DNA from: Trichodesmium erythraeum IMS101
GTDB taxonomy: Bacteria; Cyanobacteriota; Cyanobacteriia; Cyanobacteriales; Microcoleaceae
Assembly (NCBI RefSeq): GCF_000014265.1
Contig: NC_008312.1
Span: 7,560,001 to 7,592,000 of the forward strand
Length of the DNA stretch: 32,000 bases
Direction of reading: 5' to 3'
Shown here: piece by piece, positions 1 to 27,700 of the stretch
Numbering within the stretch: position 1 is the first letter of the stretch
Layout: each line of letters begins with the position of its first letter
Made by a program: the position numbers and the translations under genes
Notes under the pieces: generated by a model
Database searches by the model: none
What the model saw: only the letters and a program-made list of their open reading frames with translations
Told to the model about the DNA's origin: nothing

Positions 1-3000
1 TTGAAGATAAGATTTGCATAATTCCTCTAATTTTAACTTCTTACTTACATCCTGTAAAAATTCAGGCATCTGTTGTTGCCATTCTTCCCGGGATGAGAGG
101 TAAGACCCAAACCATTTTTCCCAAATCCAGTTTTGCAGTTCTTTAAGCCCCAACCCTTCGTAAGTATGAACTTTTACCCCATCTTGTCGCAATACAAATA
201 AATAGGTATCGTCGGTGATAGTATAAAAACTCAATATCGCTGTGGTGGGCTCCTGGATCAATGCTTGAATTTTTGGAAATTCCAGTGGGGCAACTTGAAT
301 TCCCTCTGCTAATACCCGGTCGAAGCTGCGGATTTTTTTATAAACTTCCTGCTTTTTGGCTTCTAATTCCCCAATGCGTTTGTTTCTGGCTTCTGTCGCA
401 GCTCGCCCCCTAGTTGCTACAGCTAAATCTTTCGACTCTATTTGACTGCCCTTTTGTTGTTGTTCCCAAAGTTGATTAATTTGCTGTTGAATAGCTTCGT
501 GTTCTTTTAACCGTTCTTCAACTTCTCCTGGCATTTCACCTTGGGAGTAGCGATCGTTACTTGCCATTATGTCTACTAACCGTTTGGAGCGAGAACGCTC
601 TACATATTCTAAGGCTTTTTCTATTTGATCGCTATTCACGTAAGCTTGTACTATCTTGCGGTAGACACCTATAGACTCTTCGATGATTTCTTGGCGACGG
701 TCGTCATCTTTTGACCAACTGCGGCTGAGTTCCACTGCGGTTATGGCTTTTTTATAGTTGTCGGCGGCGAGTTGCCAGTTTTGGTTGTCGAAATATAGGT
801 TGCCTAGGTTGTTGGTGGTTTGGAGGTGGTTGATGGGGTCTGCTTCTAGGGTGCGCACCAGCAAAGCTTGTTCGTATGCAGCAATGGCGGCTTCAATATT
901 TTCGGCTTTGTCTCCCCTTATTCTGTAAATGTAGGCAAGGCCGAGATTATTTTGAGTTTGTGCCCATTCCATGGGGAAGTCAGTTTGGGTGCGCACCAGC
1001 AAAGCTTGTTGGTATGCAGCAATGGCAGCTTCAATATTTTCGGCTTTGTCTCCCCTTATTCTGTCACTGTAGGCAATGCCGAGATTATTTTGAGTTTGTG
1101 CCCAGTCGATGGGGAAGTCAGTTTGGGTGCGCACCTGCAAAGCTTGTTCGTATGCAGCAATGGCGGCTTCAATATTTGCAGCAATGGCGGCTTCAATATT
1201 TTCGGCTTTGTCTCCCCTTATTCTGTCACTGTAGGCAAGGCCGAGATTATTTTGAGCTGCTGCCCAGTTGATGGGGAAGTCAGTTTGGGTGTACACCAGC
1301 AAAGCTTGTTGGAATGCAGCAATGGCAGCTTTAATATTTTGGGCTTTGTCTCCCCTTATTCTGTCACTGTAGGCATTGCCGAGATTATTTTGAGTCATTG
1401 CCCATTCCATGGGGAAGTCAGTTTGGGTGCGCACCAGCAAAGCTTGTTGGTATGCAGCAATGGCAGCTTCAATATTTTCGGCTTTGTCTCCCCTTATTCT
1501 GTCACTGTAGGCAATGCCGAGATTATTTTGAGTTCTTGCCCAGTTGATGGGGAAGTCAGTTTGGGTGTACACCAGCAAAGCTTGTTGGTATGCAGCAATG
1601 GCAGCTTCAATATTTTCGGCTTTGTCTCCCCTTATTCTGTCTCTGTAGGCAATGCCGAGATTATTTTGAGTATTTGCCCAGTCCATGGGGAAGTCAGTTT
1701 GGGTGCGCACCAGCAAAGCTTGTTGGAATGCAGCAATGGCAGCTTCAATATTTTCGGCTTGGTCTCCCTTTATTCTGTTACCGTAGGCAGAGCCGAGATT
1801 ATTTTGAGTATTTGCCCAGTCCATGGGGAAGTCAGTTTGGGTGCGCACCAGCAAAGCTTGTTGGCATGCAGCAATGGCGGCTTCAATATTTTCGGCTTTG
1901 TCTCCCCTTATTCTGTTTCTGTAGGCAGCGCCGAGATTATTTTGAGTCATTGCCCAGTCCATGGGGAAGTCAGTTTGGGTGTACACCAGCAAAGCTTGTT
2001 GGTATGCAGCAATGGCGGCTTCAATATTTTCGGCTTTGTCTCCCCTTATTCTGTCACTGTAGGCAATGCCGAGATTATTTTGAGTCATTGCCCAGTTGAT
2101 GGGGAAGTCAGTTTGGGTGTACACCAGCAAAGCTTGTTGGAATGCAGCAATGGCGGCTTCAATATTTTCGGCTTTGTCTCCCCTTATTCTGTCTCTGTAG
2201 GCAGCGCCGAGATTATTTTGAGTCATTGCCCAGTCCATGGGGAAGTCAGTTTGGGTGTACACCAGCAAAGCTTGTTGGCATGCAGCAATGGCAGCTTCAA
2301 TATTTTCGGCTTTTTCTCCCCTTATTCTGTCACTGTAGGCAGCGCCGAGATTATTTTGAGTCATTGCCCAGTCGATGGGGAAGTCAGTTTGGGTGAACAC
2401 CAGCAAAGCTTGTTGGTATGCAGCAATGGCGGCTTCAATATTTTCGGCTTTGTCTCCCCTTATTCTGTAAAAGTAGGCACCGCCGAGATTATTTTGAGTC
2501 ATTGCCCAGTCGATGGGGAAGTCAGTTTGGGTGTACACCAGCAAAGCTTGTTGGCATGCAGCAATGGCGGCTTCAATATTTTCGGCTTTGTCTCCCCTTA
2601 TTCTGTTTCTGTAGGCAGCGCCGAGATTATTTTGAGTCATTGCCCAGTCCATGGGGAAGTCAGTTTGGGTGTACACCAGCAAAGCTTGTTGGTATGCAGC
2701 AATGGCGGCTTCAATATTTTCGGCTTTGTCTCCCCTTATTCTGTAAAAGTAGGCACCGCCGAGATTATTTTGAGTCATTGCCCAGTTGATGGGGAAGTCA
2801 GTTTGGGTGTACACCAGCAAAGCTTGTTGGAATGCAGCAATGGCGGCTTCAATATTTTCGGCTTTGTCTCCCCTTATTCTGTTTCTGTAGGCAATGCCGA
2901 GATTATTTTGAGTTCCTGCCCAGTCCATGGGGAAGTCTGTTTGGGTGCGCACCAGCAAAGCTTGTTGGTATGCAGCAATGGCAGCTTCAATATTTTCCGC

Positions 3001-3648
3001 TTTGTCTCCCCTTATTCTGTCTCTGTAGGCAGCGCCGAGATTATTTTGAATAGTTGCCCAATTTTCCCGGTGACTCTTATGTGTAAAAACCTTTAGCACT
3101 ACTTCATAACCTGCAATGCTAATTTCCATGTTGTTTGCTTGGCTGCCCAGAGGAAATTGCTGAATGAGGTTACTTAACTCACCAACACACATAGCAATGT
3201 ATTCTGCTACACCCGCCTCCGCTTCAGAAAATTTAGCAGTTGCCCAGTTTCGCAATATATCAGCAAAGTTATCATCAAGTTTATCTAAGTTTTGCTGCAG
3301 GAATGGGTAGACAACCTTCGAGTCACCTTTGCTTTCTGCAGTTGCCTCCAATACCTCTTCTAAGAAATTAAAATATTCTGCCGATGAGTAATGAGTTGAG
3401 GGAGAATATTCTGAAATTTCTAGTAACTCTACAAGCTGACTCCTGAGATGACGTAAAAAATTAGCAGCGTTTTGAGCATTTTCGTCATCGTTTTCTGCCA
3501 GTTGTTGTGCGTAAAGTTCCATTATTTCCAGTAACCCTTCATCTACCAACTCTTGGTTGGCTTCGAGGATTTTTTCTACCTCACCGCTGGGGGAATTTAG
3601 CAGTTGGTTAATGAGGTTGACGTATGCTTCTATGCGTTTGTTGTCCAT
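1..3648 (-). CDS. Large TPR-repeat protein, truncated at its 3' end by the window edge; probably TPR-CHAT family (CHAT domain itself not in window)
   Basis: Absent from the ORF track because it runs off the left edge. My minus-strand translation from ATG 3648-3646 reads [54 protein letters not shown]... It continues into 16 tandem 46-aa units such as [46 protein letters not shown]. It then reads ...[31 protein letters not shown]...[16 protein letters not shown]...[30 protein letters not shown]... and stays open to base 1 (3648 = 3 x 1216). The final segment resembles the linker that precedes CHAT domains in cyanobacterial TPR-CHAT proteins. Confidence 0.8.
   Translation of the reverse strand, partial: [1216 protein letters not shown]
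851..3083 (-). repeat. 16 tandem 138-bp coding repeats (46-aa TPR-like units) inside the TPR gene
   Basis: The motif gtgcgcacc/gtgtacacc recurs at 851, 989, 1127, 1289, 1427 ... 2945. The period is exactly 138 bp apart from one unit lengthened by 24 bp. Several units are near-identical at nucleotide level (for example 2418-2555 versus 2694-2831). Confidence 0.95.
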
Positions 3649-3976
3649 TTTTAGTTATTAGTTAGTTGATATATTTTGTTGGATATTAGCCATTAGGTAT
3701 TAGGTATTAAGTTTTAAGCCTTTGTGCATTTAAACCACTAATTCTTGTATACCTCAGTTCAGATAAAAAAACCTTCTCAATTCTAAATTTTCATACTTAG
3801 CCACCGACATAAAAATTAGAGAATTTTATACCCATCTCCTTCTGTCCCATTTTGAAATAGCTTGGGGGTGTTGATGGCTTTCCCAGTAGTAGCCCTCAAG
3901 ACATTCCCCCTCGCAACAAAAACATTTTACAAAATAAACATTTGAGAGCAATAAAATCCAACTTTTAAAGTTTGAC

Positions 3977-4768
3977 TTATTCCCCCTCCCAAATTTTCAC
4001 CAACTTATTAATCAAATCTTCTGCCAAGTCACTCAACTTAACATCCCTATCCTGAACATCATCCTCCTTGAGATTTGCCATAAAATTACTAGCTAATTCT
4101 TCTTTCTCATCATCCAAATATGTCACAAACAAACTCTTAGTAGCAGCTCGCCACTCATAACTTTTTTTAGTCCGATATATCCACTCCAACTGAGCAATAA
4201 TATTAGTAAAATTATCCATCGCCAACCTATCTTTAACCCTAGAAAAAACCGGGTCAACCTCAGCAGAAAAAGCAGAATTAGCAGACTCTAAACGTTGTAA
4301 ACATTCAAACAAAACCTCTATATGTTCCAACTCATCAACCTCCAACTCTTCCGGCATTTCCTCCGGATCATCCATAGGCAAAAACCCCAATATTTCCCCA
4401 AATTGTAAACTCTGATCTAACCGAACCAAAATATAACCAATTCTATCCTCAAAAACCTCTAGGGGCAACTCTATTTTATCCTGTTCAGGTAATACAAAAC
4501 GACATTCCAACTTACCTCGATCAACAACAACCAAATCCGCCACATTCTGATAAAAACGGATTGCCGGATTCCAAAAATCAGAAGCCTCCAAATCAGTTTT
4601 AATATCCATCATTTTCAGGAAATTATCTACAGCATAAACCACCAAAGTATTCAGATAAACTTGAGTCTTTTTTTCCGAATTAGGTTGTTGAGCCGCAAAC
4701 TTTTGAGCAGAACTATGAGCCTCCATAGGGATAGGAATATTAATAGCATCATTATCTGTAATAGTCAT
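3977..4768 (-). CDS. DUF1822-family protein (cyanobacterial, function unknown)
   Basis: 263-aa ORF. N-terminal pattern ...AQKFAAQQPNSEKKTQVYLNTLVVYAVDNFLKMMDIKTDLEASDFWNP...GKLECRFVLPEQDKIELPLEV..DRIGYILVRL...ILGFLP matches my memory of DUF1822 proteins. Its ATG overlaps the upstream stop codon (TAATG). Confidence 0.7.
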   Translation of the reverse strand: MTITDNDAINIPIPMEAHSSAQKFAAQQPNSEKKTQVYLNTLVVYAVDNFLKMMDIKTDLEASDFWNPAIRFYQNVADLVVVDRGKLECRFVLPEQDKIELPLEVFEDRIGYILVRLDQSLQFGEILGFLPMDDPEEMPEELEVDELEHIEVLFECLQRLESANSAFSAEVDPVFSRVKDRLAMDNFTNIIAQLEWIYRTKKSYEWRAATKSLFVTYLDDEKEELASNFMANLKEDDVQDRDVKLSDLAEDLINKLVKIWEGE

Positions 4769-5499
4769 TATTTTTCTCCTGAAAGTTCTTGATAAATTTT
4801 CCGCAAAAGTGGTTTACACTTTCTGTTCCAATGAGCCGTCAAAGTTCCCAGAGGTACCTTTAATTCTTCCGCAATATCCTTCTGTATTTGGGGAGGATCC
4901 ATGAAGAAATTCCGTCGAGCAATTTCCCCACAAGTACATTGAGGATATTTTTTAGGATGACAACCCAACTTTTGAACTTCTGCTGATAGTTTATCCCCAA
5001 AATCTTGTTGACTTAAACTTTCCATCGGTTCCGGAAAATTACCAGCAATAACATCTTCTAAAGTAGGTATATTTAAATCATTATTCCCACCATAAATGGG
5101 TGCATCAAGAGAAGCTTCCCTCTGAGCTTTTTGCTTATATTCCTGATATAAATCAAGAATTCTGTATCTAAGACCCAAACCATAATTATTCTTTCTATAA
5201 TTAATCCATAATCTCAAACTATGTAAGAAATTTTTTCCCCTTTTTGGGTCAAACTCCTGACATATTCTTTGAGACAATTCTAACTGAATCTCTTGTAACA
5301 AATCTGGGTACTTTGGGTGTTGAGATGTAGCAAGTATTTTAGACTTTAAAATTCCGGTCCATAAAACATCAAAAGCTCTATGCCATTCCTGGCTTCCTGG
5401 AGTTTCCCCACAGAAATTAGCGATCGCTCCACAGAGTAAATCATTATCAGCCATTTCATTATAAACTTGAGTTAGAGAGACATATTTTGATATTACCAT
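4768..5499 (-). CDS. Sigma-70-like / HTH (region-4-like) protein, divergent
   Basis: 243-aa ORF with ATG start. The C-terminal segment CGEIARRNFFMDPPQIQKDIAEELKVPLGTLTAHWNRKCKPLLRKI looks like a sigma-70 region 4 helix-turn-helix. A 1-nt stop/start overlap links it to the DUF1822 gene. Family call is from pattern memory only. Confidence 0.6.
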   Translation of the reverse strand: MVISKYVSLTQVYNEMADNDLLCGAIANFCGETPGSQEWHRAFDVLWTGILKSKILATSQHPKYPDLLQEIQLELSQRICQEFDPKRGKNFLHSLRLWINYRKNNYGLGLRYRILDLYQEYKQKAQREASLDAPIYGGNNDLNIPTLEDVIAGNFPEPMESLSQQDFGDKLSAEVQKLGCHPKKYPQCTCGEIARRNFFMDPPQIQKDIAEELKVPLGTLTAHWNRKCKPLLRKIYQELSGEK

Positions 5500-5566
5500 T
5501 TAATTAATTCCAACTGTACCATAAAAAATCTTAATTTTTCCTAAAAATAGTCAGTATTCTTGAAGT

Positions 5567-5720
5567 ACAAAACCCCACAAAATAATCTCATTTATCAAAA
5601 AGTTTTCAACTTAAAAAACCAGTAATTAACCCACCCCCATCACCTCCCAAGAGAAGAGTAAAAATCATCAGTTAAGTTGATGCACAAAACCCCAGAAAAT
5701 AACATCATTTATCAAAAAGT
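5567..5720 (-). promoter_or_regulatory. Two 37-nt direct repeats upstream of the sigma-like gene
   Basis: acaaaaccccacaaaataatctcatttatcaaaaagt (5567-5603) and acaaaaccccagaaaataacatcatttatcaaaaagt (5684-5720). About 33/37 identical, 117 bp apart, in the 352-bp spacer between the 4-TM gene and the sigma-like gene. Confidence 0.4.
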
Positions 5721-5851
5721 ACCAGTTCCCAACATAGTCAAATAAATCCTTCCCAGAAAAGACACCCGCACTTGAGAAATTGCCCTATCAACCCTGAATT
5801 TTAGGCAGAAAAACCAAAACCAGAAAACAAAAAATAATACCAAAACCAACC

Positions 5852-6799
5852 TCAACTTGATGGTTTTCCAGATATAGACAACTGCTCATAATAAACATCA
5901 TCAAAATAAACATTAATAGGCACAAACGTAACCTTACTTGTAAAATTTTGATTATGGTAATTAACCGCCGCCTCATAATTTTTACAAGCATGAGTAAAAT
6001 GATATTTTTCCTGATAAAAAATCCTCTTGTATCTGCGCAACTTATATTGCCGACGTAAATAGTTAATTCTAAACCAAAAAAAAGCAAAAGCATTTTGATA
6101 GCGATCGTAACCATAAACCACACCAGCATCAGTCACATAAGCCAAAATTCCCATCGCCAACAACAAAATTATTTCATACAACTCAGGAGGCCACTCCTCC
6201 CCAGTATAGAGAGCAACAGAAGTACCAAGCAACATCGCCGGAGTTACCCAAACAATAGTATTAGCCAGCCTTTGCCAAAGTATAACTTCATCACGAGAAG
6301 AAGGAGACATTTGAGCCGAAAACAACTGAGAACAAACCCCCAACTCAAACAAAACAATAACAAAAGGCAACAATATAGCCGCAACAGTAACAGCAAAAGA
6401 CCCTGGAGGAAATGCCTGGGACGCCAAATATTCCACAGGTTGTTTAATTAAAACAAAATTGATCACCAAAACAGCAATAAAAAACGACAGCATAAAAAAA
6501 TAACCAAGAGTTGTCCTAATACCCTTCCTCAAAAACTCCGGATATTCTTGTTTCAACCGTGCCAACTCATTCTCAGTTTCTAACTTTCTTTCTCGAGTTT
6601 CCCCTGCCTTATAAAAATGCTTAAACCTCAACGACGCAAGCTGACGGATATGATCAAGCGATCGCCTCTCATCTATTTCCCTGTTAGGCCTTTCCCTCTC
6701 ATCCTCATCTTGTTGTTTCCACCCTGCTAACTTTTTATAGTAGTCTTCTTTTGCCGACTGAAAATTTTGACCTTCCTCACCCAAAGACGAATTATGCAT
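5852..6799 (-). CDS. Integral membrane protein: charged coiled-coil N-terminus, 4 predicted TM helices, aromatic/basic C-terminal tail
   Basis: The ORF track starts at TTG 6805. The first ATG is at 6799-6797, 2 nt after the vWA gene stop, with AAGGGAGA upstream. Hydrophobic stretches: GYFFMLSFFIAVLVINFVLI, FAVTVAAILLPFVIVLFELGV, IVWVTPAMLLGTSVALY, IILLLAMGILAYVTDAGVVYG. No family recognised. Confidence 0.65.
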   Translation of the reverse strand: MHNSSLGEEGQNFQSAKEDYYKKLAGWKQQDEDERERPNREIDERRSLDHIRQLASLRFKHFYKAGETRERKLETENELARLKQEYPEFLRKGIRTTLGYFFMLSFFIAVLVINFVLIKQPVEYLASQAFPPGSFAVTVAAILLPFVIVLFELGVCSQLFSAQMSPSSRDEVILWQRLANTIVWVTPAMLLGTSVALYTGEEWPPELYEIILLLAMGILAYVTDAGVVYGYDRYQNAFAFFWFRINYLRRQYKLRRYKRIFYQEKYHFTHACKNYEAAVNYHNQNFTSKVTFVPINVYFDDVYYEQLSISGKPSS

Positions 6800-6801
6800 A
6801 C

Positions 6802-7707
6802 TCAATTTTCTCCCTTATTCACCTGAGTAACCAAATACCGAAAAGCAGCAGGTACAGACTCAAAAGCCTTGTGCTCAATATTTTCAAATATCCCCTTACC
6901 TCCCGCGCCATTTACTAACAAAACCTCAGCATTACTCTTAAACTCCACAGGTTGAACGCCAACATTATCCAAACCATCAGTAATAAAAACAGCAAACTTT
7001 TGAGGTGTTTGTCTCCAAGTCAGATCACTTTCCCCTAAAAATAACTTAGCACGGTTAATTCCTCCTTGAATATCACTACTCCCACAATTAACAGGACGTG
7101 CTAAAATAGGTTTAACTTGAGTTGTGAGAAACTCATTAATTTTTTCCTCACTCTGACTGTGCCACTCTTGCACCGAATTATTATGATCAGCCAAAATTTG
7201 CAGATCATTTTGACGTAGAGTTTTATATTTAACTAACTCTTGTTTATACTGATCCTTTTCCTTCCTATATGTAAAAGCATTACCTTTATTTTTTGGTTCA
7301 ACAGGTGGAACTGGATGATGAAAAACCACTTTTTCCAACAAAGGTTGTTGTTCCACCCTAACCCTTTCTAGGGGGCGGTTACTGTCATCACAAAAATTTC
7401 CTACTGCTAGCTCCCCACCATTAATTTTTAATAGCCGCAAAGATGACTGAACATCTTGGGTTTTTGGTCCTTCGATGCGACTCCAGTCAGCACTAACCGT
7501 CTTATCTATTAGAATGACCACTTTAACCGGAGTTGACCGGGCTTGGTTTTGCAAAGCATTTTTGACTTCTGGTAAAGGTTCAGATATAATAGGAGATGTA
7601 GTCTTAATAGAAGTTTTGCCATCAACTTTTCCGGCACAGCTTGCTATGGATAAAATAGTTGATATAATAATCAGAATACCATATATTTTAAGAATAGTTA
7701 CAATCAT
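6802..7707 (-). CDS. Lipoprotein with von Willebrand factor A (vWA)-like fold
   Basis: Signal peptide with lipobox (ILSIAS|C). vWA-like strands VKVVILIDKTVS (DxTxS MIDAS-like) and FAVFITDGLDN. A coiled-coil insertion lies between them. Its stop is adjacent to or overlapping the start of the next gene. Confidence 0.6.
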   Translation of the reverse strand: MIVTILKIYGILIIISTILSIASCAGKVDGKTSIKTTSPIISEPLPEVKNALQNQARSTPVKVVILIDKTVSADWSRIEGPKTQDVQSSLRLLKINGGELAVGNFCDDSNRPLERVRVEQQPLLEKVVFHHPVPPVEPKNKGNAFTYRKEKDQYKQELVKYKTLRQNDLQILADHNNSVQEWHSQSEEKINEFLTTQVKPILARPVNCGSSDIQGGINRAKLFLGESDLTWRQTPQKFAVFITDGLDNVGVQPVEFKSNAEVLLVNGAGGKGIFENIEHKAFESVPAAFRYLVTQVNKGEN

Positions 7708-7766
7708 TGTTTTTTAGCTCAAAGTGTTGATCCTTAAGTTGATAAATTTGCCTGATGTCAAACCGT

Positions 7767-9990
7767 AAATTATCTGTTCTATTTATTTAACAGCTTGAAA
7801 AAGAACTAACTTTGCAAACTTCAAAAAAAATTTAGCTGAAAATTCTGCCATGACTGCAAATTATCTGTTCTATTTATTTAACAGCTTGAAAAAGAACTGA
7901 CTTGGCAAACTTCAAAAAAAATTTTAGCTGAAAATTCTGCCATGACTGCAAATTATCTGTTCTATTTATTTAACAGCTTGAAAAAGAACTGACTTTGCAA
8001 ATTTCAAAAAAAAATTAGCTGAAAATTCTGCCATGACTGCAAATTATCTTTTCTATTTATTTAACAGCTTGAAAAAGAACTGACTTTGCAAACTTCAAAA
8101 AAAATTTAGCTGAAAATTCTGCCATGACTGCAAATTATCTTTTCTATTTATTTAACAGCTTGAAAAAGAACTGACTTGGCAAATTTCAAAAAAAATTTTA
8201 GCTGAAAATTCTGCCATAACTGCAAATTATCTGTTCTATCTGTTTAACAGCTTGAAAAAGAACTGACTTTGCAAACTTCAAAAAAAATTTTAGCTGAAAA
8301 TTCTGCCATGACTGCAAATTATCTGTTCTATTTATTTAACAGCTTGAAAAAGAACTGACTTGGCAAATTTCAAAAAAAATTTAGCTGAAAATTCTGCCAT
8401 GACTGCAAATTATCTGTTCTATTTATTTAACAGCTTGAAAAAGAACTGACTTTGCAAACTTCAAAAAAAATTTTTAGCTGAAAATTCTGCCATGACTGCA
8501 AATTATCTGTTCTATTTATTTAACAGCTTGAAAAAGAACTGACTTTGCAAACTTCAAAAAAAATTTAGCTGAAAATTCTGCCATGACTGCAAATTATCTG
8601 TTCTATTTATTTAACAGCTTGAAAAAGAACTGACTTGGCAAATTTCAAAAAAATTTTTAGCTGAAAATTCTGCCATGACTGCAAATTATCTGTTCTATCT
8701 GTTTAACAGCTTGAAAAAGAACTGACTTTGCAAACTTCAAAAAAAAATTTAGCTGAAAATTCTGCCATGACTGCAAATTATCTGTTCTATTTATTTAACA
8801 GCTTGAAAAAGAACTGACTTGGCAAATTTCAAAAAAAAATTAGCTGAAAATTCTGCCATGACTGCAAATTATCTGTTCTATTTATTTAACAGCTTGAAAA
8901 AGAACTGACTTGGCAAATTTCAAAAAAAATTTAGCTGAAAATTCTGCCATGACTGCAAATTATCTGTTCTATTTATTTAACAGCTTGAAAAAGAACTGAC
9001 TTTGCAAATTTCAAAAAAAAATTAGCTGAAAATTCTGCCATGACTGCAAATTATCTTTTCTATTTATTTAACAGCTTGAAAAAGAACTGACTTTGCAAAC
9101 TTCAAAAAAAATTTAGCTGAAAATTCTGCCATGACTGCAAATTATCTTTTCTATTTATTTAACAGCTTGAAAAAGAACTGACTTGGCAAATTTCAAAAAA
9201 AATTTTAGCTGAAAATTCTGCCATAACTGCAAATTATCTGTTCTATCTGTTTAACAGCTTGAAAAAGAACTGACTTTGCAAACTTCAAAAAAAATTTTAG
9301 CTGAAAATTCTGCCATGACTGCAAATTATCTGTTCTATTTATTTAACAGCTTGAAAAAGAACTGACTTGGCAAATTTCAAAAAAAATTTAGCTGAAAATT
9401 CTGCCATGACTGCAAATTATCTGTTCTATTTATTTAACAGCTTGAAAAAGAACTGACTTTGCAAACTTCAAAAAAAATTTTTAGCTGAAAATTCTGCCAT
9501 GACTGCAAATTATCTGTTCTATTTATTTAACAGCTTGAAAAAGAACTGACTTTGCAAACTTCAAAAAAAATTTAGCTGAAAATTCTGCCATGACTGCAAA
9601 TTATCTGTTCTATTTATTTAACAGCTTGAAAAAGAACTGACTTGGCAAATTTCAAAAAAAATTTTAGCTGAAAATTCTGCCATGACTGCAAATTATCTGT
9701 TCTATTTATTTAACAGCTTGAAAAAGAACTGACTTTGCAAATTTCAAAAAAAATTTAGCTGAAAATTCTGCCATGACCCTAAATTATCTGTTCTATTTAT
9801 TTAACAGCTTGAAAAAGAACTGACTTGGCAAATTTCAAAAAAAAATTTAGCTGAAAATTCTCCCATGACTGCAAATTATCTGTTCTATTTATTTAACAGC
9901 TTGAAAAAGAACTGACTTTGCAAATTTCAAAAAAAATTTAGCTGAAAATTCTGCCATGACCCTAAATTATCTGTTCTATTTATTTACATC
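7767..9990 (+). repeat. Tandem array of about 24 copies of a 91-93 bp unit (not CRISPR: no spacers)
   Basis: Unit: aaattatctgttctatttatttaacagcttgaaaaagaactgactttgcaaacttcaaaaaaaatttagctgaaaattctgccatgactgc. The internal ATG/ATA recurs at 7850, 7942, 8033, 8124, 8216 ... 9865, 9956. The last copy merges into ORF 9956-10168. Confidence 0.97.
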
Positions 9991-14766: not shown

Positions 14767-15161
14767 GGGGCATTAACGGTTTCGACAGGGTGGTGAAATC
14801 TGCTTTGTGATGCAGGCCGAGAGTGAGTCTTCTCTCGAAAATCCTGGACTCAAAAAATAATAAGTGCAAACAACATTGTACCTTTTGCTCGTAAGCAAGT
14901 AGCTGCTCTAGCTTAATTGCAAAAACACCTCTTATAGGTTCGAGCGTCTGTGGTTTGACTCCGTTAATAATTGCAGACTTAACCCCAACGGATGCTCTAG
15001 CAATTTTTCTCTGGTTACCTGCTAGTTAAGATTTAACCAGAGCATCCCACTATCCGGGATAATGGATAGTCCCAGCTCTGAGGGTTAAGAAGGGCTAAAC
15101 CTGTGAATGAGTGAAGGGTGAATAGCCATTTTGGACATGGGTTCGACTCCCATATGCTCCA
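14767..15161 (+). ncRNA. ssrA: tmRNA (SsrA), one-piece form
   Basis: 5' GGGGCATTAACGGTTTCGACAGG. 3' GGACATGGGTTCGACTCCCATATGCTCCA. The acceptor stem pairs GGGGCAT with ATGCTCC and includes the G3-U pair. Tag reading frame 14866-14916 encodes ANNIVPFARKQVAALA followed by TAA, a typical cyanobacterial ANNIV... tag. Confidence 0.93.
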
Positions 15162-15184
15162 TACATTAGTTATAAGTCTCTCCA

Positions 15185-15812: not shown

Positions 15813-15943
15813 AAAAAAAAGTCCCTCAACAAATTTCAGTTAAGAGACGATAACTATCAGGGTGCATCTACTAAACGTAGTGTAACACCCCTGAAGGGTT
15901 AGACCCCCTATTTTTATATTTAAATATTTAATGTTACTAATAA
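15813..15943 (-). ncRNA. Candidate small RNA gene (copy 2)
   Basis: Minus strand has a perfect TATAAT (15955-15950). About 130 nt downstream is the hairpin GUCUCUUAAC-N8-GUUGAGGGAC followed by U8. This stem needs G-U wobbles on the minus-strand RNA; the same positions would be A-C mismatches on the plus strand. Internal hairpins: CAGGGGUG..CACCCUG, CUAC..GUAG, GGGU..ACCC. Confidence 0.35.
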
Positions 15944-15962: not shown

Positions 15963-16095
15963 AAAAAAAAAAGTCCCTCAACAAATTTCAGTTGAGAGAC
16001 GATAACTATCAGGGTGCATCTACTAAACGTAGTGTAACACCCCTGAAGGGTTAGACCCCCTATTTTTATATTTAAATATTTAATGTTACTAATAA
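15963..16095 (-). ncRNA. Candidate small RNA gene (copy 3)
   Basis: Same architecture as copy 2. TATAAT at 16107-16102 on the minus strand. Terminator hairpin GUCUCUCAAC-N8-GUUGAGGGAC followed by U10. Confidence 0.35.
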
Positions 16096-17441: not shown

Positions 17442-19460
17442 ATGCCTGTTGTTAACCCTTCCACTATCATCAACTTTCCCCTAGCTGCCGTAGTTGGACA
17501 AGAAGCAATAAAACTGGCCTTATTATTAGCTGCGGTAGATCCAGGATTGGGAGGAGTGGCCATTGCTGGTCGTCGAGGTACAGCGAAATCTGTAATGGCC
17601 AGAGCTATACATTCCCTTTTGCCTCCTATTGAAATTGTCAAAGGTTCTATTAGTAATTGTAATCCCAACTATCCTGAAGAATGGGATGAGCAAGTTTTAC
17701 AAGAGAGTCCCAACGCTACAGGAGAAGAAATATCTACAGAAGTTATACCTGCACCTTTTATTCAAATTCCTCTGGGAGTGACAGAAGACAGGTTATTGGG
17801 TTCAGTGGATGTGGAAAAATCAGTCAAACAGGGGGAAACTGTATTTCAACCAGGGTTATTAGCTGCTGCTCACCGAGGGGTATTATATGTAGATGAAATT
17901 AATCTCCTTGATGATAATATTGCTAATTTATTACTGACGGTTTTAACAGAAGGCAAAAATCAAATAGAGCGAGAAGGTATTAGTTTTCAACATCCCTGTC
18001 AACCTCTATTTATTGCTACTTATAATCCAGAAGAAGGACCTTTAAGAGAACATTTGCTTGATAGAATAGCGATCGCTCTCTCAGCAGATATGGTCTTAGG
18101 TTTAGACCAACGAGTGGAAGCAGTAGGACAAGCTTTAGATTATGCTAATTCTCCCCAAGCTTTTCTGGAACGATACACGGAAGATATAGATAATCTCAAA
18201 ACTCAAATTCTGTTAGCAAGGGAATGGGTAAAAGAGGTAGTGATCACCCATGAACAAATACTCTATTTAGTAGAAGAAGCAGTTCGAGGAGGAGTACAAG
18301 GACATCGGGCAGAACTTTTTGCTGTGCGAGTTGCTAAGGCATCGGCGGCGTTGGACGGACGAACAACTGTTAATGCTGATGACTTACGCCGAGCAGTGGA
18401 GTTAGTTATTGTGCCACGAGCAACAATAGTGCCAACTCCGCCGGAAGAAGAACAACAACCACCACCGCCACCGCCTCCTCCTCCAGAAGACCAGTCCGAA
18501 CAGGAACAAGATGAACAGGAAGATGAGGAAAAACCTGAACCTCCAGAGGAAGAAGAGGCAAGTATTCCGGAAGAGTTTTTGTTTGATCCTGAGGGAGTGG
18601 TATTGGATGATAGTGTTTTGTATTTTGCTCAAATGGCAAACCGTCAGGGTAAGTCGGGTAGTAGGAGTATAATTTTTTCTGAAGATCGGGGGCGTTATGT
18701 GAAACCAATGTTGCCTAAAGGTAAGGTGCGACGTATTGCTGTGGATGCAACTTTACGGGCGGCTGCTCCTTATCAAAAGTCTAGAAGGGAACGTCAACCA
18801 AACCGCAGGGTTATTGTGGAGCAGGGTGATATGCGGGCAAAACGGTTGGCAAGAAAGGCGGGTGCTTTGGTGGTTTTTGTGGTTGATGCTTCGGGTTCGA
18901 TGGCGTTGAATAGAATGCAGTCGGCAAAGGGTGCGGTGATGCAGTTGTTGACGGAGGCGTATCAGAGTCGTGATCAGGTTTCGTTAATTCCGTTTCGGGG
19001 GGAACAGGCGGAGGTTTTGTTACCGCCGACTCGCTCGATCACTTCTGCCCGAAGACGTTTGGAAAAAATGCCTTGTGGTGGGGGTTCGCCTTTGGCACAT
19101 GGTTTGACTCAGGCGGTGAGAGTGGGTGTGAATGCCAAGCAGTCTGGTGATGTGGGGCAGGTGGTTATTGTGGCTATTACTGATGGGCGGGGGAATATTC
19201 CGTTGGCGCGTTCTTTGGGTGAACCGATGTTGGATGCTGAAAAGCCGAATATTAAGGAGGAGTTATTGGAAATTGCTGGTAAAATTCGGGGTTTGGGAAT
19301 TCAGTTGTTGATGATAGATACGGAGAATAAGTTTGTTTCTACTGGGTTTGCGAAGGAGTTGGCGAAGCAGTCGGGGGGTAAGTATTATCATTTACCGAAG
19401 GCGAGTGATCAGGCTATTGCTGCTATGACTCAGAATGCTCTGAAGGATGCTATTGGGTAA
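17442..19460 (+). CDS. chlD: Magnesium chelatase subunit D
   Basis: 672 aa. AAA+ N-terminal domain ([50 protein letters not shown]). Pro/acidic linker ([24 protein letters not shown]). C-terminal vWA domain with MIDAS motif ([18 protein letters not shown]). Confidence 0.93.
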
Positions 19461-20252: not shown

Positions 20253-20687
20253 ATGAGGTTTTTTATAGGGTTGGTGCTTTTGGGGATAGTTAGCGCTATC
20301 GTTTTACCGTCCTTTTTAAATCAAGCAAATAAAGCTAAACAGAATGAGGCGAAAGAATATATTGCTTCAATGAATAGAGGTCAACAAGCTTATTATACAA
20401 AAAAGGCAGAGTTTTCAGACAACATTTCTGCTCTAGGACTAGAGTTCAATTCAGAAACTGAAAATTACTCATACGATATTAGCAAAGTAGATGATGGTGA
20501 TTATGTTATTTCCACTGCTACTGCTAAAAATAAACAATTAAAAAGTTATTCCGGTATAGTTTATGTTGATGACAATACTACTACATTAATGATTTGTGAA
20601 ACTGACAAACCTTCATTAACAGCACCTGAGGATTTTGAATCTTTTGATATATGTCCGCCAGGCTCTTCTAAATTTATAAAAGATTAA
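20253..20687 (+). CDS. Type IV pilin-like protein with atypical or truncated N-terminus
   Basis: LLGIVSAIVLPSFLNQANKAKQNEAKEYIASMNRGQQAYY resembles cyanobacterial pilin-like proteins. The G|FTLIE prepilin cleavage/methylation motif is absent. Arg sits at the position of the conserved Glu5, and a stop codon lies 11 codons upstream in frame. Confidence 0.5.
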   Translation: MRFFIGLVLLGIVSAIVLPSFLNQANKAKQNEAKEYIASMNRGQQAYYTKKAEFSDNISALGLEFNSETENYSYDISKVDDGDYVISTATAKNKQLKSYSGIVYVDDNTTTLMICETDKPSLTAPEDFESFDICPPGSSKFIKD

Positions 20688-21798: not shown

Positions 21799-24700
21799 TT
21801 ACATTCCTACCACATCCCAATTTGAATGGAAACCTCCGGGGTTAACTATAGTATCACGTGTGCCATCATCTTTCATCAACCAAATCTTGTTAGCTACATT
21901 TTCAGTACGCCAGAGAATGTCTGCCACTCCATCAGTATTGAAATCTGCGACTCCAGCGACATCCCAATCTGAATGGAAACCTCCAGGGTTAACTATACTA
22001 TCCCGTGTGCCATCATTTTTCATCAACCAAATCTTGTTAGCTCCATTTTCAGTACGCCAGAGAATGTCTGCCACTCCATCAGTATTGAAATCTGCGACTC
22101 CAGCGACATCCCAATTTGAATGGAAACCTCCAGAGTTAACTATACTATCCCGTGTGCCATCATTTTTCATCAACCAAATCTTGTTAGCTCCATTTTCAGT
22201 ACGCCAGAGAATGTCTGCCACTCCATCAGTATTGAAATCTGCGACTCCAGCGACATCCCAATCTGAATGGAAACCTCCAGGGTTAACTATACTATCCCGT
22301 GTGCCATCATTTTTCATCAACCAAATCTTGTTAGCTACATTTTCATGACGCCAGAGAATGTCTGCCACTCCATCAGTATTGAAATCTGCGACTCCAGCGA
22401 CATCCCAATCTGAATGGAAACCTCCAGGGTTAACTATACTATCCCGTGTGCCATCATTTTTCATCAACCAAATCTTGTTAGCTCCATTTTCAGTACGCCA
22501 GAGAATGTCTGCCACTCCATCAGTATTGAAATCTGCGACTCCAGCGACATCCCAATTTGAATGGAAACCTCCAGGGTTAACTATACTATCCCGTGTGCCA
22601 TCATTTTTCATCAACCAAATCTTGTTAGCTCCATTTTCAGTGCGCCAGAGAATGTCTGCCACTCCATCAGCATTGAAATCAAACTGCACGGGAGCTTTGT
22701 TTTCCGTGATATTTACAGTGACATCACTTATACTGATACCATTGTAGTCTCCATCGCTATTGCTAACGTTATGACTAATTATACTGGTGTGATAACTTTC
22801 ATTCTCTCTGTCTTTTTCTGCTTCAACAGTAATGGTTTGAGGAGTATCCCAGTTGGCATCTGTAAAGGTTATAGAGTTGATTTTTTTGACCTCTGCATCT
22901 GTGGTAAAATCAATGGTTACATCTGAAGTAGGCTCAGTTTCAAGAACTATCTGATAAGTATCTGTGGTACCACCTTCAGTTACATCAGTACTGCCATCAG
23001 TTTCGGTAATAGTGACCCCAGGAGTTGAAGTAGTTATGGTGGTTTCAATAGTCAGCTCATAACTACCAAAGCCGGAACCAGAACCGCTACCTTCCGTATT
23101 GGGGTCGTAAGAGCTATTCATCTCACCACTAATACCCAAATAGAACGTGCCGGTTTCCGGAGCAGAGAAAGTACCTTGACCAGGCTCGCTTCCTGGGTTC
23201 CTAGGAATCTCATTTCCTGTAGAGTCAAACACTCGCACTGTCGCCATACCCATGGGCATGTTCTTTTCATCGAACAATTCTGGCAAGTTAAAGTTAACTT
23301 TTTCCCCAATGTAGAGGTCGAACTTAAATAGGTCTACATCTTCCTCTTGTAGGATATTGGTATTGTCGCCGACTTCGCCACTAAAGTTGTAGATGCCTGG
23401 GTTGGTCAAATTTAGTCCGGTGTCGGTGGCATCCGTTAAGATGTCGTTGGCTTCCTCATTTCCCATAGTCCGACCCATGGTTTCAATAGTCAAGTCATAA
23501 CTACCAAATCCCAAACCAGAACCGCTACCTTCGGTATTGGGGTCGTAAGAGCTATTGCCATCACCACTAATACCCAAATAGAACGTGCCGGTTTCCGGAG
23601 CAGAGAAAGTACCTTGACCAGGCTCGCTTCCTGGGTTCGTAGGAATCTCATTTCCTGTAGAGTCAAACACTCGCACTGTCGCCATACCCATGGGCATGTT
23701 CTTTTCATCGAACAATTCTGGCAAGTTAAAGTTAACTTTTTCCCCAATGTAGAGGTCGAACTTAAATAGGTCTACATCTTCCTCTTGTAGAATATTGCTA
23801 TTGTCGCCGACTTCGCCGCTGAAGTTGTAGATGCCTGGGTTGGTCAAATTTAGTCCGGTGTCGGTGGCATCCGTTAAGATGTCGTTGGCTTCTTCATTTC
23901 CCATAGTCCGACCCATGGTTTCAATAGTCAAGTCATAACTACCAAAGCCGGAACCATAACCGCTACCTTCCGTATTGGGGTCGTAAGAGCTATTCATCTC
24001 ACCACTAATACCCAAATAGAACGTGCCGGTTTCCGGAGCAGAGAAAGTACCTTGACCAGGCTCGCTTCCTGGGTTCCTAGGAATCTCATTTCCTGTAGAG
24101 TCAAACACTCGCGCTGTCGCCATACCCATGGGCATGTTCTTTTCATCGAACAATTCTGGCAAGTTAAAGTTAACTTTTTCCCCAATGTAGAGGTCGAACT
24201 TAAATAGGTCTACATCTTCCTCTTGTAGAATATTGCTATTGTCGCCGACTTGGCCGCTGAAGGTGTAGATGCCTGGGTTAGTCAAACTTAGCCCAGTGTC
24301 GGTTGCTTCAGTTAAGGTATCGTTGGGTTCCCCATCTCCCATAGTCCTATCAATAGTTTCAATAGTCAGCTCATAACTACCAAAGTTGGAACCAGAACCG
24401 CTACCTTCGGTATTGGGGTCGTAAGAGATATTGCCATCACCACTAATACCCAAATAGAATGTCCCTGGTTCCGGAGTCAAGAAAGTACCTGTACCTGCTT
24501 CAGTTCCATAGTCCCAATCAATCTCTATACCTGTGGAGTCAAACAGTCGCACTGTGGCCTGGCCAATGGGGGAGTTATTTTCATCTAACAATTCTGGCAA
24601 GTTAAAGTTGACTTCTTCGCCGATGTCGAGGTCGAACTTAAATAGGTCTACATCTTCCTCTTGTAGAATATTGCTATTGTCGCCGACTTGGCCACTGAAG

Positions 24701-27700
24701 GTGTAGATGCCTGGGTTAGTCAAACTTAGCCCAGTGTCGGTTGCTTCAGTTAAGGTATCGTTGGGTTCCCCATCTCCCATAGTCTTATCAATAGTTTCAA
24801 TAGTCAGCTCATAACTACCAAAATTGGAACCAGAACCGCTACCTTCGGTATTGGGGTCGTAAGAGATATTGCCATCACCACTAATACCCAAATAGAATGT
24901 CCCTGCTTCCGGAGTCAAGAAAGTACCTGTACCTGCTTCAGTTCCATAGTCCCAATCAATCTCTATACCTGTGGAGTCAAACAGTCGCACTGTGGCCTGG
25001 CCAATGGGGGAGTTATTTTCATCTAACAATTCTGGCAAGTTAAAGTTGACTTCTTCGCCGATGTCGAGGTCGAACTTAAATAGGTCTACATCTTCCTCTT
25101 GTAGAATATTGCTATTGTCGCCGACTTGGCCACTGAAGGTGTAGATACCTGGGTTAGTCAAACTTAGCCCAGTGTCGGTTGCTTCAGTTAAGGTATCGTT
25201 GGGTTCCCCATCTCCCATAGTCCTATCAATAGTTTCAATAGTCAGCTCATAACTACCAAAGTTGGAACCAGAACCGCTACCTTCCGTATTGGGGTCGTAA
25301 TAGCTATTGCCATCACCACTAATACCCAAATAGAATGTGCCTGCTTCCGGAGTCCAGAAAGTACCACCTGGTTCAGGTCCATAATCCCAATAGTCCCAAC
25401 TAATCTCATATCCTGTGGAGTCAAACAGTCGCACTGTGGCCGGGCCATTGGGGTTTTCATTATCAACCCACAATTCTGGCAAGTTAAAGTTGACTTCTTC
25501 TCCGATGTCGAGGTCGAACTTAAATAGGTCTACATCTTCCTCTTGTAGAATATTGCTATTGTCGCCGACTTGGCCACTGAAGGTGTAGATACCTGGGTTA
25601 GTCAAACTTAGCCCAGTGTCGGTTGCTTCAGTTAAGGTATCGTTGGGTTCCTCATTTCCCATAGTCCGACCGATAGTTTCAATAGTCAGCTCATAACTAC
25701 CAAAATTGTAACCATAACCACTACCTTCGGTATTGGGGTCGTAATAGCTATTGCCATCACCACTAATACCCAAATAGAATGTGCCTGCTTCAGCAGTCCG
25801 GAAAGTACCACCTGGTTCAGGTCCATAATCCCAATAGTCCCAACTAATCTCATATCCTGTGGAGTCAAACACTCGCACTGTGGCCGGGCCATTGGGGTTT
25901 TCATTATCAACCCACAATTCTGGCAAATTAAAGTTGACTTCTTCGCCGATGTCGAGGTCGAACTTAAATAGGTCTACATCTTCCTCTTGTAGAATATTGC
26001 TATTGTCGCCGACTTGGCCGCTGAAGGTGTAGATGCCTGGGTTCGTCAAACTTAGCCCAGTGTCGGTTGCTTCAGTTAAGGTGTCGTTGGGTTCCTCATT
26101 TCCCATAGTCCGACCGATAGTTTCAATAGTCAGCTCATAACTACCAAAATTGTAACCATAACCACTACCTTCGGTATTGGGGTCGTAATAGCTATTGCCA
26201 TCACCACTAATACCCAAATAGAATGTGCCTGCTTCAGGAGTCCAGAAAGTACCACCTGGTTCAGGTCCATAATCCCAATAGTCCCAACTAATCTCATATC
26301 CTGTGGAGTCAAACAGTCGCACTGTGGCCTGGCCATTGGGGTTTTCATTATCAACCCACAATTCTGGCAAGTTAAAGTTGACTTCTTCGCCGATGTCGAG
26401 GTCGAACTTAAATAGGTCTACATCTTCCTCTTGTAGAATATTGCTATTGTCGCCGACTTGGCCACTGAAGGTGTAGATGCCTGGGTTAGTCAAACTTAGT
26501 CCAGTATCGGTCGCTTCAGCTAAGGTGTCGTTGGGTTCATCCCCAATTCGAGAACCTGTAGTTTCAATGGTTAAGTCATAGTTGCCTGCTATAGAACCAT
26601 AACCACTACCTTCTATATTGGGGTCATAATTTGTATTACCAGTACCACTAATGCCAAGATAGAATGTACCTATTTCTAATGCTTGATAGGTAAGAGAGTT
26701 AGGGTCTGGGTAAGAAGATAATGATATATGGCTTCCTGTAGAATCAAACAATCTGATTTCAGCATTACCAACAAAATTACCGTCATCATCCAATATTTCT
26801 ACATTCGAGGATAAACTAACTGTTTCTCCTGCATCCAAGTCAAACTTAAATAAATCTACATCATGTTGTTGCAGGAGATTAGTGTTGTCACCAATTTTAC
26901 CAGAATATGTATATGTACCTGGGTTAGTTAGGGTAAGTCCAGTGTGAGTCGCTCGTGTTATAGTATCATTTGGTTCTTTAAATATAATCGAAACTACATC
27001 GTCACCTCCAAGTGCTGAAATTGGATAATTGTTGATTGTCCGTAAAAGTGTGCCAAAGCGATCAAATACATCGATGTTAGCTGAGCTGTTGTTACCTATA
27101 TAAATCTCGTTATCAACAACAGCAACTCCATTGCTATTGTTAGAGATAGAAAAAGAATTGGTAACTAAACCTGTTGTCGGATTTATTTCTAAAAGTTGTT
27201 CTGGATATTCATTAATTGCTAGTAAGGCATTAGGCCCTGTAATTCCTGCTAGTCCTCGACTTAGTGATACGGGGAAGTTATTAATTCCATCAATATCTAA
27301 CGTCCTAGTAACTTCATCTATTACAGGATCGAACTCCAGAATATCCCCGTCCCCATAGTCTAATATATAAACCTTTCCTTCCAGAACTGCTAAACCTTCA
27401 AAAACACCATAATCAGAAATGGGATCGCTATCCCTTACTGCTCCTGTATCTGGGTTTAGTTCCCATAGCTTGGTACTGTAACCATTATTCTCAACAAAGA
27501 ATAAACTATTACCGTCAAAAGCTAAACCTTTACTTTCTGATGAAAATGTTTCGGGGGCTAAGAAATTATTAATTTCTTCTCCTGTTTCAGGGTTTAACTC
27601 AACTATTTGATTAGAACCGTCATCCTTAAAAGCAAACAAGCGTTCGCTCTCAATTTGACCCATCTGCCGACCAATAGTTTCAATAGTTAAGCCATAGCTA

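Follow-up and report, generated by a model that had tools for sequence, protein, structure and literature searches.

How a cyanobacterium might couple a caspase-like protease to transcription is the question raised by a run of five genes at one end of a 32,000-nt stretch of the Trichodesmium erythraeum IMS101 chromosome (NC_008312.1, positions 7,560,001 to 7,592,000; hereafter the window, in whose coordinates all positions are given). The genes encode a predicted lipoprotein with a divergent vWA domain, a membrane protein, a divergent sigma-70 family protein, a DUF1822 protein and a large TPR protein of the CHAT type. The cluster is very probably a lineage-specific variant of the sigma + DUF1822 + caspase systems of Kaur et al. 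(2021; eLife, PMC8195603), with a TPR-CHAT protein as the protease and a vWA/four-transmembrane (4-TM) pair added. That it operates in the manner of the CRISPR-associated protease Craspase is a tentative proposal, which we doubt rather more than we believe. Variant identity and Craspase-like mechanism taken together form our favoured explanation, which stands just short of an even chance.

Five open reading frames (ORFs) occupy positions 1-7707, all on the minus strand and with no credible opposing gene between them. The ORF list and the public gene calls on identical contigs, which report these five genes alone, agree on this point, as an earlier reading of the letters alone (the original prediction) had claimed. 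Tery_4963 (6802..7707, 301 aa) is the predicted lipoprotein, its vWA domain carrying a 59-residue helical insertion. It is followed by Tery_4962 (5852..6799, 315 aa), a membrane protein with about four transmembrane segments, by the sigma-like Tery_4961 (4768..5499, 243 aa), of the extracytoplasmic function (ECF) type with putative sigma2 and sigma4 regions, and by Tery_4960 (3977..4768, 263 aa), a short-form DUF1822 protein. A UniRef comparison returned exact matches to these four complete proteins. The fifth gene, the TPR-CHAT gene (1..3648), has its ATG at 3648 and is cut by the window edge at base 1, leaving an N-terminal part of at least 1216 aa. Intergenic stretches of 352 bp (5500..5851, minus strand) and 328 bp (3649..3976, minus strand) lie 5' of the sigma-like and the TPR-CHAT gene, respectively.

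Both close junctions read in the original prediction are present. The stop codon of the vWA gene (TGA, 6802-6804) is followed after a 2-nt gap by the ATG of Tery_4962 at 6799, with GGGAG ahead; an alternative TTG start at 6805 would turn the gap into a TTGA overlap. The sigma-like and DUF1822 genes have base 4768 in common through a TAATG overlap, with AGGAG ahead. A scan for consensus promoters and terminators gave counts no higher than in shuffled sequence. PADLOC returned no match among the five cluster proteins, and a literature search found no mention of Tery_4959-4963. Plus-strand ORFs at 868-3096, 6095-6451 and 7475-7717 run antisense within the five genes and are taken to be shadows of them. 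The first of these, a 742-aa frame, spans the TPR array and is read as a by-product of the repeats on the opposite strand.

The arrangement of the five genes exceeds chance, as it recurs across genera, and this conserved neighbourhood ties the genes together functionally. DUF1822 relatives are encoded in at least 593 places among species-representative genomes, from which 80 loci, all cyanobacterial, were fetched and their ORFs scanned locally. In 76 of the 79 evaluable loci, DUF1822 is immediately preceded by a sigma-like ORF, recognised with a family profile, and the two genes overlap by 1 or 4 nt in 33 of 60 measured pairs. CHAT-type genes are present in 65 of the 80 loci, directly downstream in 47, and Pfam confirms the CHAT domain in sampled loci. 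In Nostoc, Capilliphycus, Oscillatoria and Rivularia, the sigma and DUF1822 genes precede a gene that encodes an N-terminal domain, CHAT and a PBP_like_2, Peripla_BP_6 or protein kinase domain, a layout known from Kaur et al. (2021) as the EACC2-caspase architecture. Many DUF1822 loci have, in addition, a TPR-CHAT gene of the window's type nearby, and the window's own clade, whose DUF1822 is of the short form, has the TPR-CHAT type only.

Closer relatives preserve more of the cluster. The full five-gene set occurs in identical order in Dapis (locus L012), and variants of it are found in Okeania (L098) and Kamptonema (L022). Two metagenome loci (L094 and L100) keep the gene order at 43% identity of the vWA-like protein; the downstream TPR gene of L094 is confirmed by homology, and its putative counterpart in L100 is truncated where the contig ends. 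The original prediction had made conservation beyond this one genome a test of its reading, and the order is indeed found well outside it.

These loci fall within a described class. Kaur et al. (2021) catalogued sigma + DUF1822 + caspase neighbourhoods of multicellular bacteria and proposed that caspase-dependent activation leads to a sigma-mediated transcriptional response (PMC8195603). The cluster resembles their systems in its ECF-like sigma gene adjacent to DUF1822 and its linked CHAT gene, and those systems are likewise mostly cyanobacterial, with a predicted conflict or apoptosis-like role and transcriptional output. The framing in terms of conflict and programmed cell death, offered from the letters alone, agrees with this class from the Aravind group. 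The accompanying statement that nothing in the arrangement had been characterised has to be withdrawn, given that the core trio is catalogued (PMC8195603) and that a Csx29/Csx30/CASP-sigma precedent has been tested (PMC10028731, PMC9825189).

Differences from the catalogued systems are nonetheless clear. Their protease consists of an N-terminal EACC2 domain, a caspase domain and a variable C-terminal sensor, whereas the protein here combines a helical N-terminal domain, TPRs and a C-terminal CHAT domain; a hidden Markov model (HMM) of EACC2-type proteins had no match in the window. DUF1822 is present here in its short form. The Kaur text calls DUF1822 a TPR protein, whereas the model of Tery_4960 has an alpha/beta N-terminal domain. 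In the portion of that text considered here (PMC8195603), the lipoprotein-vWA/4-TM pair is absent; its mentions of vWA concern other contexts, and the word lipoprotein does not occur. Three features lie outside the catalogue: a TPR-CHAT protein in place of the EACC2-caspase, the lipoprotein-vWA/4-TM pair, and a DUF1822 N-terminal domain that models as restriction-endonuclease (REase)-like. Also new are the shared upstream motif and the 24-copy amplification of the vWA upstream region, both discussed below.

The protease gene provides a domain-level tie to Craspase. Within the window it comprises the helical N-terminal domain (3079-3648), the TPR region (about 849-3060) and a pre-CHAT linker (1-768). 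Pfam identifies TPR_10 at E 1.5e-49. The array (849..3060, minus strand) consists of 16 near-identical 46-aa units and one degenerate cap, and Tandem Repeats Finder (TRF) describes it as a 138-bp period in 15.8 copies at 86-93% identity. The last 78-241 aa encoded in the window are 87% identical to two Trichodesmium-type fragments, P0209 and P0202, both of which run on into CHAT precisely at the window end. The 16 repeats and the CHAT-type linker seen at the outset are thereby confirmed. The CHAT call itself holds for P0202, P0209 and the orthologues, while the domain lies outside the window.

Full-length orthologues exist in Dapis, Okeania and a Microcoleaceae metagenome-assembled genome. Those of L012 (Dapis), L008 and L010 end in a C-terminal CHAT domain with E values from 1e-25 to 1e-31 (1.7e-31 for L012). 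Among solved structures, the CHAT domain of L012 is best matched by TPR-CHAT of Craspase (8d9f, 7y83 and 7x8a), at E 2e-7 to 6e-8 and with the catalytic His and Cys aligned. Attempts to extend the IMS101 gene were less informative: an exact DNA search of metagenome contigs for the continuation left of window base 1 found nothing, exact-protein look-ups returned only contigs that break within the repeats, and the last 256 aa, used as a protein query, retrieved fragments but no full-length IMS101 protein.

The repeats themselves display an unusual pattern of variation. The units are identical at 32 of their 46 positions, and what variation there is falls at positions 6, 7, 10, 17, 20, 21, 38 and 45. 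Both the number of repeats and the length of the repeat region differ among the orthologues, which are proteins of 916 to 1248 aa. Variation restricted to few repeat positions, along with a changing repeat number, is typical of NLR-like receptors whose repeats are conserved internally. The TPR array thus appears receptor-like, with putative hypervariable positions. The N-terminal domain is conserved among the TPR-CHAT proteins linked to DUF1822; a search for a shared adaptor, which compared this domain with the DUF1822 and sigma families, found nothing, and its Pfam matches were noise only. One unit of the array contains an 8-aa internal duplication, NIEAAIAA.

The sigma-like protein is recognisable mainly through its family. 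Tery_4961 has no Pfam match, and its NCBIfam matches are faint (best E 3e-4, far under the cutoff; one of them at residues 206-239). A profile of 27 sigma-like family sequences aligns with region 2 of RpoD/SigA in PDB entries (E from 2.8e-5 to 4e-4), and the C-terminus of family members yields weak Sigma70_r4_2 or generic helix-turn-helix (HTH) matches. UniRef names Tery_4961 a sigma-70 family factor. Based on these sequence comparisons, we regard it as a divergent protein of the sigma2 + sigma4 kind. The initial call of a sigma-70 region 4 is modified in consequence: the family profile supports a sigma factor through region 2, whereas region 4 is weak and Pfam negative.

Two further features of this gene deserve mention. 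Residues 180-228, in the sigma4-like region, hold a cluster of Cys and His residues (C-H-x6-C-x-C ... H-x4-C). Among 84 members of the sigma-like family, C228 is conserved in 76, C190 in 69, H223 in 56, C188 in 53 and C180 in 50; the cluster may be a zinc or redox site. In relatives (L012 at 9230-9278, L008, L010 and L098), the sigma-like gene follows a Shine-Dalgarno sequence and an upstream ORF (uORF) of 9 codons, MIYG(I/M/K)VGV(S/I)*, and the uORF stop codon abuts the sigma-like ATG. In the window (5500-5540), the ATG of the uORF has been lost, and a 9-codon ORF in another frame overlaps the sigma-like start. The uORF may exert translational control.

The protein that overlaps with the sigma-like gene is a firm member of its family. 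Tery_4960 matches PF08852 (DUF1822) at E 4.8e-59, with a score of 200.7 against a cutoff of 25, which settles the family call made from the translation. Its C-terminal 107 aa correspond to profile positions 268-338. No anti-sigma family rose above noise in Pfam or NCBIfam searches with Tery_4960, and the protein lacks a hydrophobic or transmembrane segment. TRADD-N fusion proteins also contain the DUF1822 C-terminal module (Pfam profile positions 214-370), which suggests that it is the adaptor part common to both, and the module appears to occur in two types of system.

Three loci illustrate the second type. Proteins of 317 aa that join TRADD-like_N to the DUF1822 C-terminal module are encoded in L092 (1220-2173), L093 (1577-2530) and L099 (3945-4898), and their genes are flanked by a divergent vWA-like/transmembrane pair and by CHAT-nSTAND1 or NACHT genes. 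A 223-aa neighbour in L099 faintly resembles EcsC (E 3.5e-4, under the cutoff). A hidden TRADD-N domain within DUF1822 was considered and ruled out, as Pfam TRADD-like_N matches the fusion proteins alone and not canonical DUF1822.

Upstream sequences offer a possible link among three of the genes. The motif TATCAACTWA occurs twice in the 32-kb window, once upstream of the TPR-CHAT gene (TATCAACTAA at 3662-3671, minus strand, 22 nt before the ATG) and once upstream of the vWA gene (TATCAACTTA at 7735-7744, minus strand, 36 nt before the ATG). The shorter form ATCAACTWA has five matches in the window, three of them in the upstream regions of the TPR-CHAT, sigma-like and vWA genes; the sigma-like instance is ATCAACTTA at 5673-5681, minus strand. 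The position of (T)ATCAACTWA is conserved in other genera, and ahead of the TPR-CHAT gene the motif keeps an equal distance from the ATG in L012, L008 and L010 (-15 in L098). It may serve these genes as a common promoter or operator element. The 35 nt ahead of the sigma-like ATG are conserved across genera as well.

The same upstream region of the sigma-like gene contains two 62-nt direct repeats (5542-5603 and 5659-5720), 82% identical and 117 nt apart. They occur in all Trichodesmium erythraeum-type contigs and in no other genera, where small hairpin repeats are found.

An experimental precedent for a protease acting on a sigma factor's partner exists in type III-E CRISPR systems. There, the TPR-CHAT protease Csx29 cleaves Csx30 (PMC10028731, PMC9825189), a protein that binds and inhibits the ECF-like sigma factor CASP-sigma/RpoE (PMC10028731, PMC9825189). 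As in Craspase loci, genes for an ECF-like sigma factor and for a small partner lie next to that of a TPR-CHAT protease, the homology of CHAT being confined to the domain level. Unlike Craspase, the window ORFs include no Cas7-11/gRAMP and the window has no CRISPR array, its Rfam scan returning tmRNA and NsiR1 only; T. erythraeum has been reported to lack cas genes (PMC4143802). A Csx31 counterpart is lacking, DUF1822 is unrelated to Csx30 in sequence and fold, and the TPR array is far longer and repeat-homogenised. Likewise, the activating signal here cannot be the binding of RNA guided by CRISPR RNA (crRNA).

The classical RpoE-RseA circuit with its proteases DegS and RseP provides a second comparison. 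It shares overlapping, probably co-transcribed sigma and partner genes, a protease nearby and envelope proteins in the cluster. In contrast to RseA, the partner here is soluble, without transmembrane segment or recognisable anti-sigma domain. DegS and RseP are periplasmic or intramembrane proteases, whereas the protease here would be a cytoplasmic caspase-fold enzyme.

The locus thus suggests the logic of Craspase without CRISPR, and a hypothesis of cleavage and release. Under this proposal, Tery_4961 and Tery_4960 would be produced in fixed proportion from their overlapping genes, and their complex would keep the sigma factor inactive. The TPR-CHAT protein would sense a cytoplasmic trigger, such as an invader or a damage signal, via its fast-evolving array of near-identical repeats. 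The trigger would switch on the caspase-like domain, which would cleave the DUF1822 partner or another component of the system. Once freed, the sigma factor would start transcription at cluster promoters, among them those of the vWA/4-TM pair and the protease gene, which have (T)ATCAACTWA in common.

Several observations weigh against this proposal. All protein-protein contacts, the cleavage step and the direction of signalling are inferred by analogy. DUF1822 has no anti-sigma domain and no similarity in sequence or fold to Csx30 or to solved structures. The sigma assignment is made at E values near 1e-5 and for region 2 only, with region 4 weak, and a comparison of the family with E. coli RpoE, made with an approximate RpoE query, aligned the right region but was not significant. 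The (T)ATCAACTWA motif was found post hoc. The CHAT part lies beyond the window and no full-length protein was returned, so the IMS101 gene may be disrupted. Relatives carry insertions of 0.2-3.5 kb between DUF1822 and TPR-CHAT; together with the two gaps of about 340 bp in the window, these variable insertions allow for separate transcription. Finally, DUF1822 has an invariant D...ExR motif, and the protein may on that account act as an enzyme or bind nucleic acids in its own right.

This last point opens the main rival to a Craspase-like switch. Here the DUF1822 N-terminal domain would be a toxic enzyme of the PD-(D/E)xK kind, activated by CHAT and leading to abortive infection or cell death, and the sigma-like HTH protein would serve as its inhibitor or DNA-targeting partner and would be no transcription factor. 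The AlphaFold2 (AF2) model of Tery_4960 (predicted local distance difference test, pLDDT, 82) has an alpha/beta N-terminal domain at residues ~10-131, with elements in the order alpha-beta-beta-beta-alpha-beta, followed by helices. Searched against BFVD, the fold gives seven matches with E < 1e-3 (best 5e-5, probability 1.0, template-modelling scores 0.5-0.6), all to phage proteins of 160-180 aa, of which two are named restriction endonuclease and most are unnamed. Among PDB structures nothing is significant (best E 0.48), though the weak top matches are HincII, a splicing endonuclease and Hjc. All 85 distinct DUF1822 sequences compared share N40, A77-D78, E88-C89, R109 and G128-F129, and 82 of them also have R90. 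D78 and E88-x-R90 occupy neighbouring strands of the model and are spaced as in D...(D/E)xK, Arg replacing Lys.

From this structural model, a REase-like alpha/beta fold with an invariant D...ExR motif is a lead. REase and ECF-like HTH domains both figure as N-terminal effector domains of TRADD-N proteins in Kaur et al. (PMC8195603), and the DUF1822 C-terminal module recurs in TRADD-N fusions, which fits a toxic role. Against it, the sequence profile of DUF1822 found no meaningful match among solved structures, nucleases included, and profile comparison with a Uma2 nuclease-family protein found nothing; the motif has Arg for Lys, and the sigma-like protein retains region-2 features of true sigma factors. 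Overall, a nuclease effector of this kind is an unlikely account of the cluster. The same fold bears on the sigma/anti-sigma analogy with which the pair was originally explained: no anti-sigma domain was found and the N-terminal half models as REase-like, which tells against that analogy in its simple form.

Another alternative, and the one originally put forward, starts from the envelope: a periplasmic vWA lipoprotein would sense a ligand outside the cytoplasm and signal through the 4-TM protein to the sigma/DUF1822 pair, which would then control TPR-CHAT. A hydrophobic segment lies at the N-terminus of Tery_4963, and Cys24 of its lipobox is invariant in the family alignment. D68..S72 (DKTxS) and T243-D244-G245 (TDG) are also invariant there and resemble a metal ion-dependent adhesion site (MIDAS). 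Searches of Pfam and NCBIfam with Tery_4963 gave no match, and the Kamptonema homologue (L022) matches Pfam VWA_2 at E 5e-4, below cutoff. The AF2 model (pLDDT 77) has PDB fold matches that are nearly all vWA, weak because of the 59-residue helical insertion (E 1e-3 to 0.2, template-modelling score ~0.3). On balance, the model and the motifs point to a divergent vWA domain. An extracytoplasmic vWA protein, as first read, is hence backed by the signal peptide and lipobox, the MIDAS-like motifs and the vWA-type model, whereas Pfam and NCBIfam are negative. All five original domain calls survive in this manner with unequal strength, DUF1822 by a Pfam match, vWA and sigma without one. Homologues of Tery_4963 form 23 clusters only, and all named ones are cyanobacterial.

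The comparison of this protein with the vWA components of NTP-dependent conflict systems does not stand, as those are cytoplasmic and paired with MoxR, whereas Tery_4963 is predicted to be exported and has no MoxR partner. As Kaur et al. outline them, MoxR-vWA ternary systems share with the cluster a vWA domain (a divergent, putative one in Tery_4963), an occurrence in multicellular cyanobacteria and a frequent link to caspase or STAND proteins (PMC8195603). They differ in that the cluster holds no MoxR AAA+ gene and Tery_4963 has no vWA-L/effector tail. A signal peptide and lipobox without MoxR mean that Tery_4963 is not a MoxR-type vWA component.

Its partner, Tery_4962, has hydrophobic segments at residues 93-126, 129-162, ~178-200 (weak) and 207-230, a charged N-terminal region of ~95 aa and a basic C-terminal tail with 13 K/R. 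No family match was obtained in Pfam, NCBIfam or PADLOC. The 4-TM gene follows the vWA-like gene in all relatives seen. The question, raised at the outset, of whether the pair travels with DUF1822 genes is answered by 11 of 12 readable contexts, where it lies beside a DUF1822-module gene, though only two of the 80 genome loci carry it and two more hold remnants. Two of the 11 contexts adjoin TRADD-N-DUF1822_C fusions with CHAT-nSTAND or NACHT genes. The pair has decayed in some relatives that kept the rest (L007, L008 and L098), and only the remotest vWA-like homologue, at 37% identity, is found elsewhere, in a TraG conjugation context without DUF1822. The vWA/4-TM pair is therefore an accessory that travels with DUF1822-module systems, most of which lack it.

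A relay from the envelope would draw on the predicted export, lipid anchor and retained MIDAS-like residues of Tery_4963, on translational coupling of the two genes, on their tight co-occurrence with DUF1822-module genes, and on the large cytoplasmic N- and C-terminal regions of the membrane protein, which could reach cytoplasmic partners. Its difficulties are that most sigma/DUF1822/CHAT loci do without the pair, which makes it an add-on and not the core input, that it decays while the rest persists, that the external loops of the membrane protein are very short and that a sensor is more readily seen in the TPR array. The motif common to the vWA and protease genes suggests that the vWA gene is regulated alongside the protease, not upstream of it, and fits equally with the pair as an output. 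Control from the envelope is accordingly improbable, and we lean slightly towards the pair being an envelope-located accessory arm that serves output over input.

That an orphan sigma/partner pair lies merely by chance near an unrelated TPR-CHAT gene and a lipoprotein operon would accommodate the two gaps, the unrelated genes (PIN, Uma2 and small toxins) that intervene between DUF1822 and TPR-CHAT in relatives, the TraG context of the distant vWA-like homologue and the uninformative promoter and terminator scan, but it is already disfavoured and very improbable, since the components recur jointly across genera, at low identity and in more than one order, the linked TPR-CHAT proteins carry a specific N-terminal domain and upstream motifs are shared.

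A variant sigma + DUF1822 + caspase system, perhaps switched by cleavage, thus remains the preferred reading, and it has consequences beyond this locus. Neighbourhoods of this kind are widespread in filamentous cyanobacteria, and the REase-like fold proposed for DUF1822 and the vWA/membrane accessory pair provide new handles on them. As a nitrogen fixer, T. erythraeum IMS101 is of global importance. The collapse of its blooms has been linked to caspase-like activity, and a genetically defined module leading from caspase to transcription would be useful there. In its boldest form, the proposal describes a CRISPR-independent counterpart of Craspase: a TPR-CHAT protease resembling an immune receptor, its repeat array hypervariable, would recognise a signal of invasion or damage and cleave a REase-fold DUF1822 that doubles as anti-sigma factor, releasing both a sigma programme and a nuclease, with the vWA/membrane pair as envelope arm. 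We regard this as distinctly unlikely; if true, it would be one possible genetic route to caspase-like programmed cell death in bloom collapse.

Upstream of the vWA gene, the cluster borders on a non-coding tandem array (7767..9986) with a 91-bp unit in 24.3 copies at 95% identity (TRF). The proximal upstream region of the gene (7708..7777, minus strand) holds TATCAACTTA and, at 7768-7777, the element ACAGATAATT. The latter is found in 21 units of the array, against 0.3 occurrences expected by chance. In Dapis and Okeania a single copy precedes the vWA gene and forms one half of an inverted repeat; the homologous regions of L012 and L098 contain the 8-nt inverted repeat GATAATTT/AAATTATC. The 91-bp unit resembles this single-copy upstream region in L012 and L098. 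The 2.2-kb array is an amplification of the upstream region of the vWA gene and may or may not be part of the system. As a decoy site, a set of multiple promoters or a source of non-coding RNA, it could have a function. Public short-read contigs of the species break or collapse at the array: the distance from the radical-SAM gene to the vWA gene is ~525 nt in L088 as opposed to 2631 nt in the window.

The rest of the window contains features of separate interest. A gene for a ChlD-like Mg-chelatase subunit (17442-19460; AAA+ and vWA) lies 10 kb from the cluster and encodes the window's only AAA+/vWA protein. In L094, a ChlD-like gene (1202-3250) is the direct, divergently oriented neighbour of the homologous cluster. 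This proximity probably reflects a shared chromosomal position and not function. A nearby hetF was also considered and ruled out, the 672-aa ORF in question being ChlD. Two copies of the nitrogen-stress small RNA NsiR1 (15814-15873 and 15966-16025, minus strand), both above the Rfam gathering threshold, are present in this non-heterocystous host and adjoin a transfer-messenger RNA (tmRNA) gene at 14767-15164. A pilin-like gene (20253-20687) and an ORF with a Trypco1 domain (31678-31992) lie further along, and between them a 3041-aa ORF (21799-30924, minus strand) with FG-GAP repeats and pre-peptidase C-terminal (PPC) domains probably encodes a giant surface protein.

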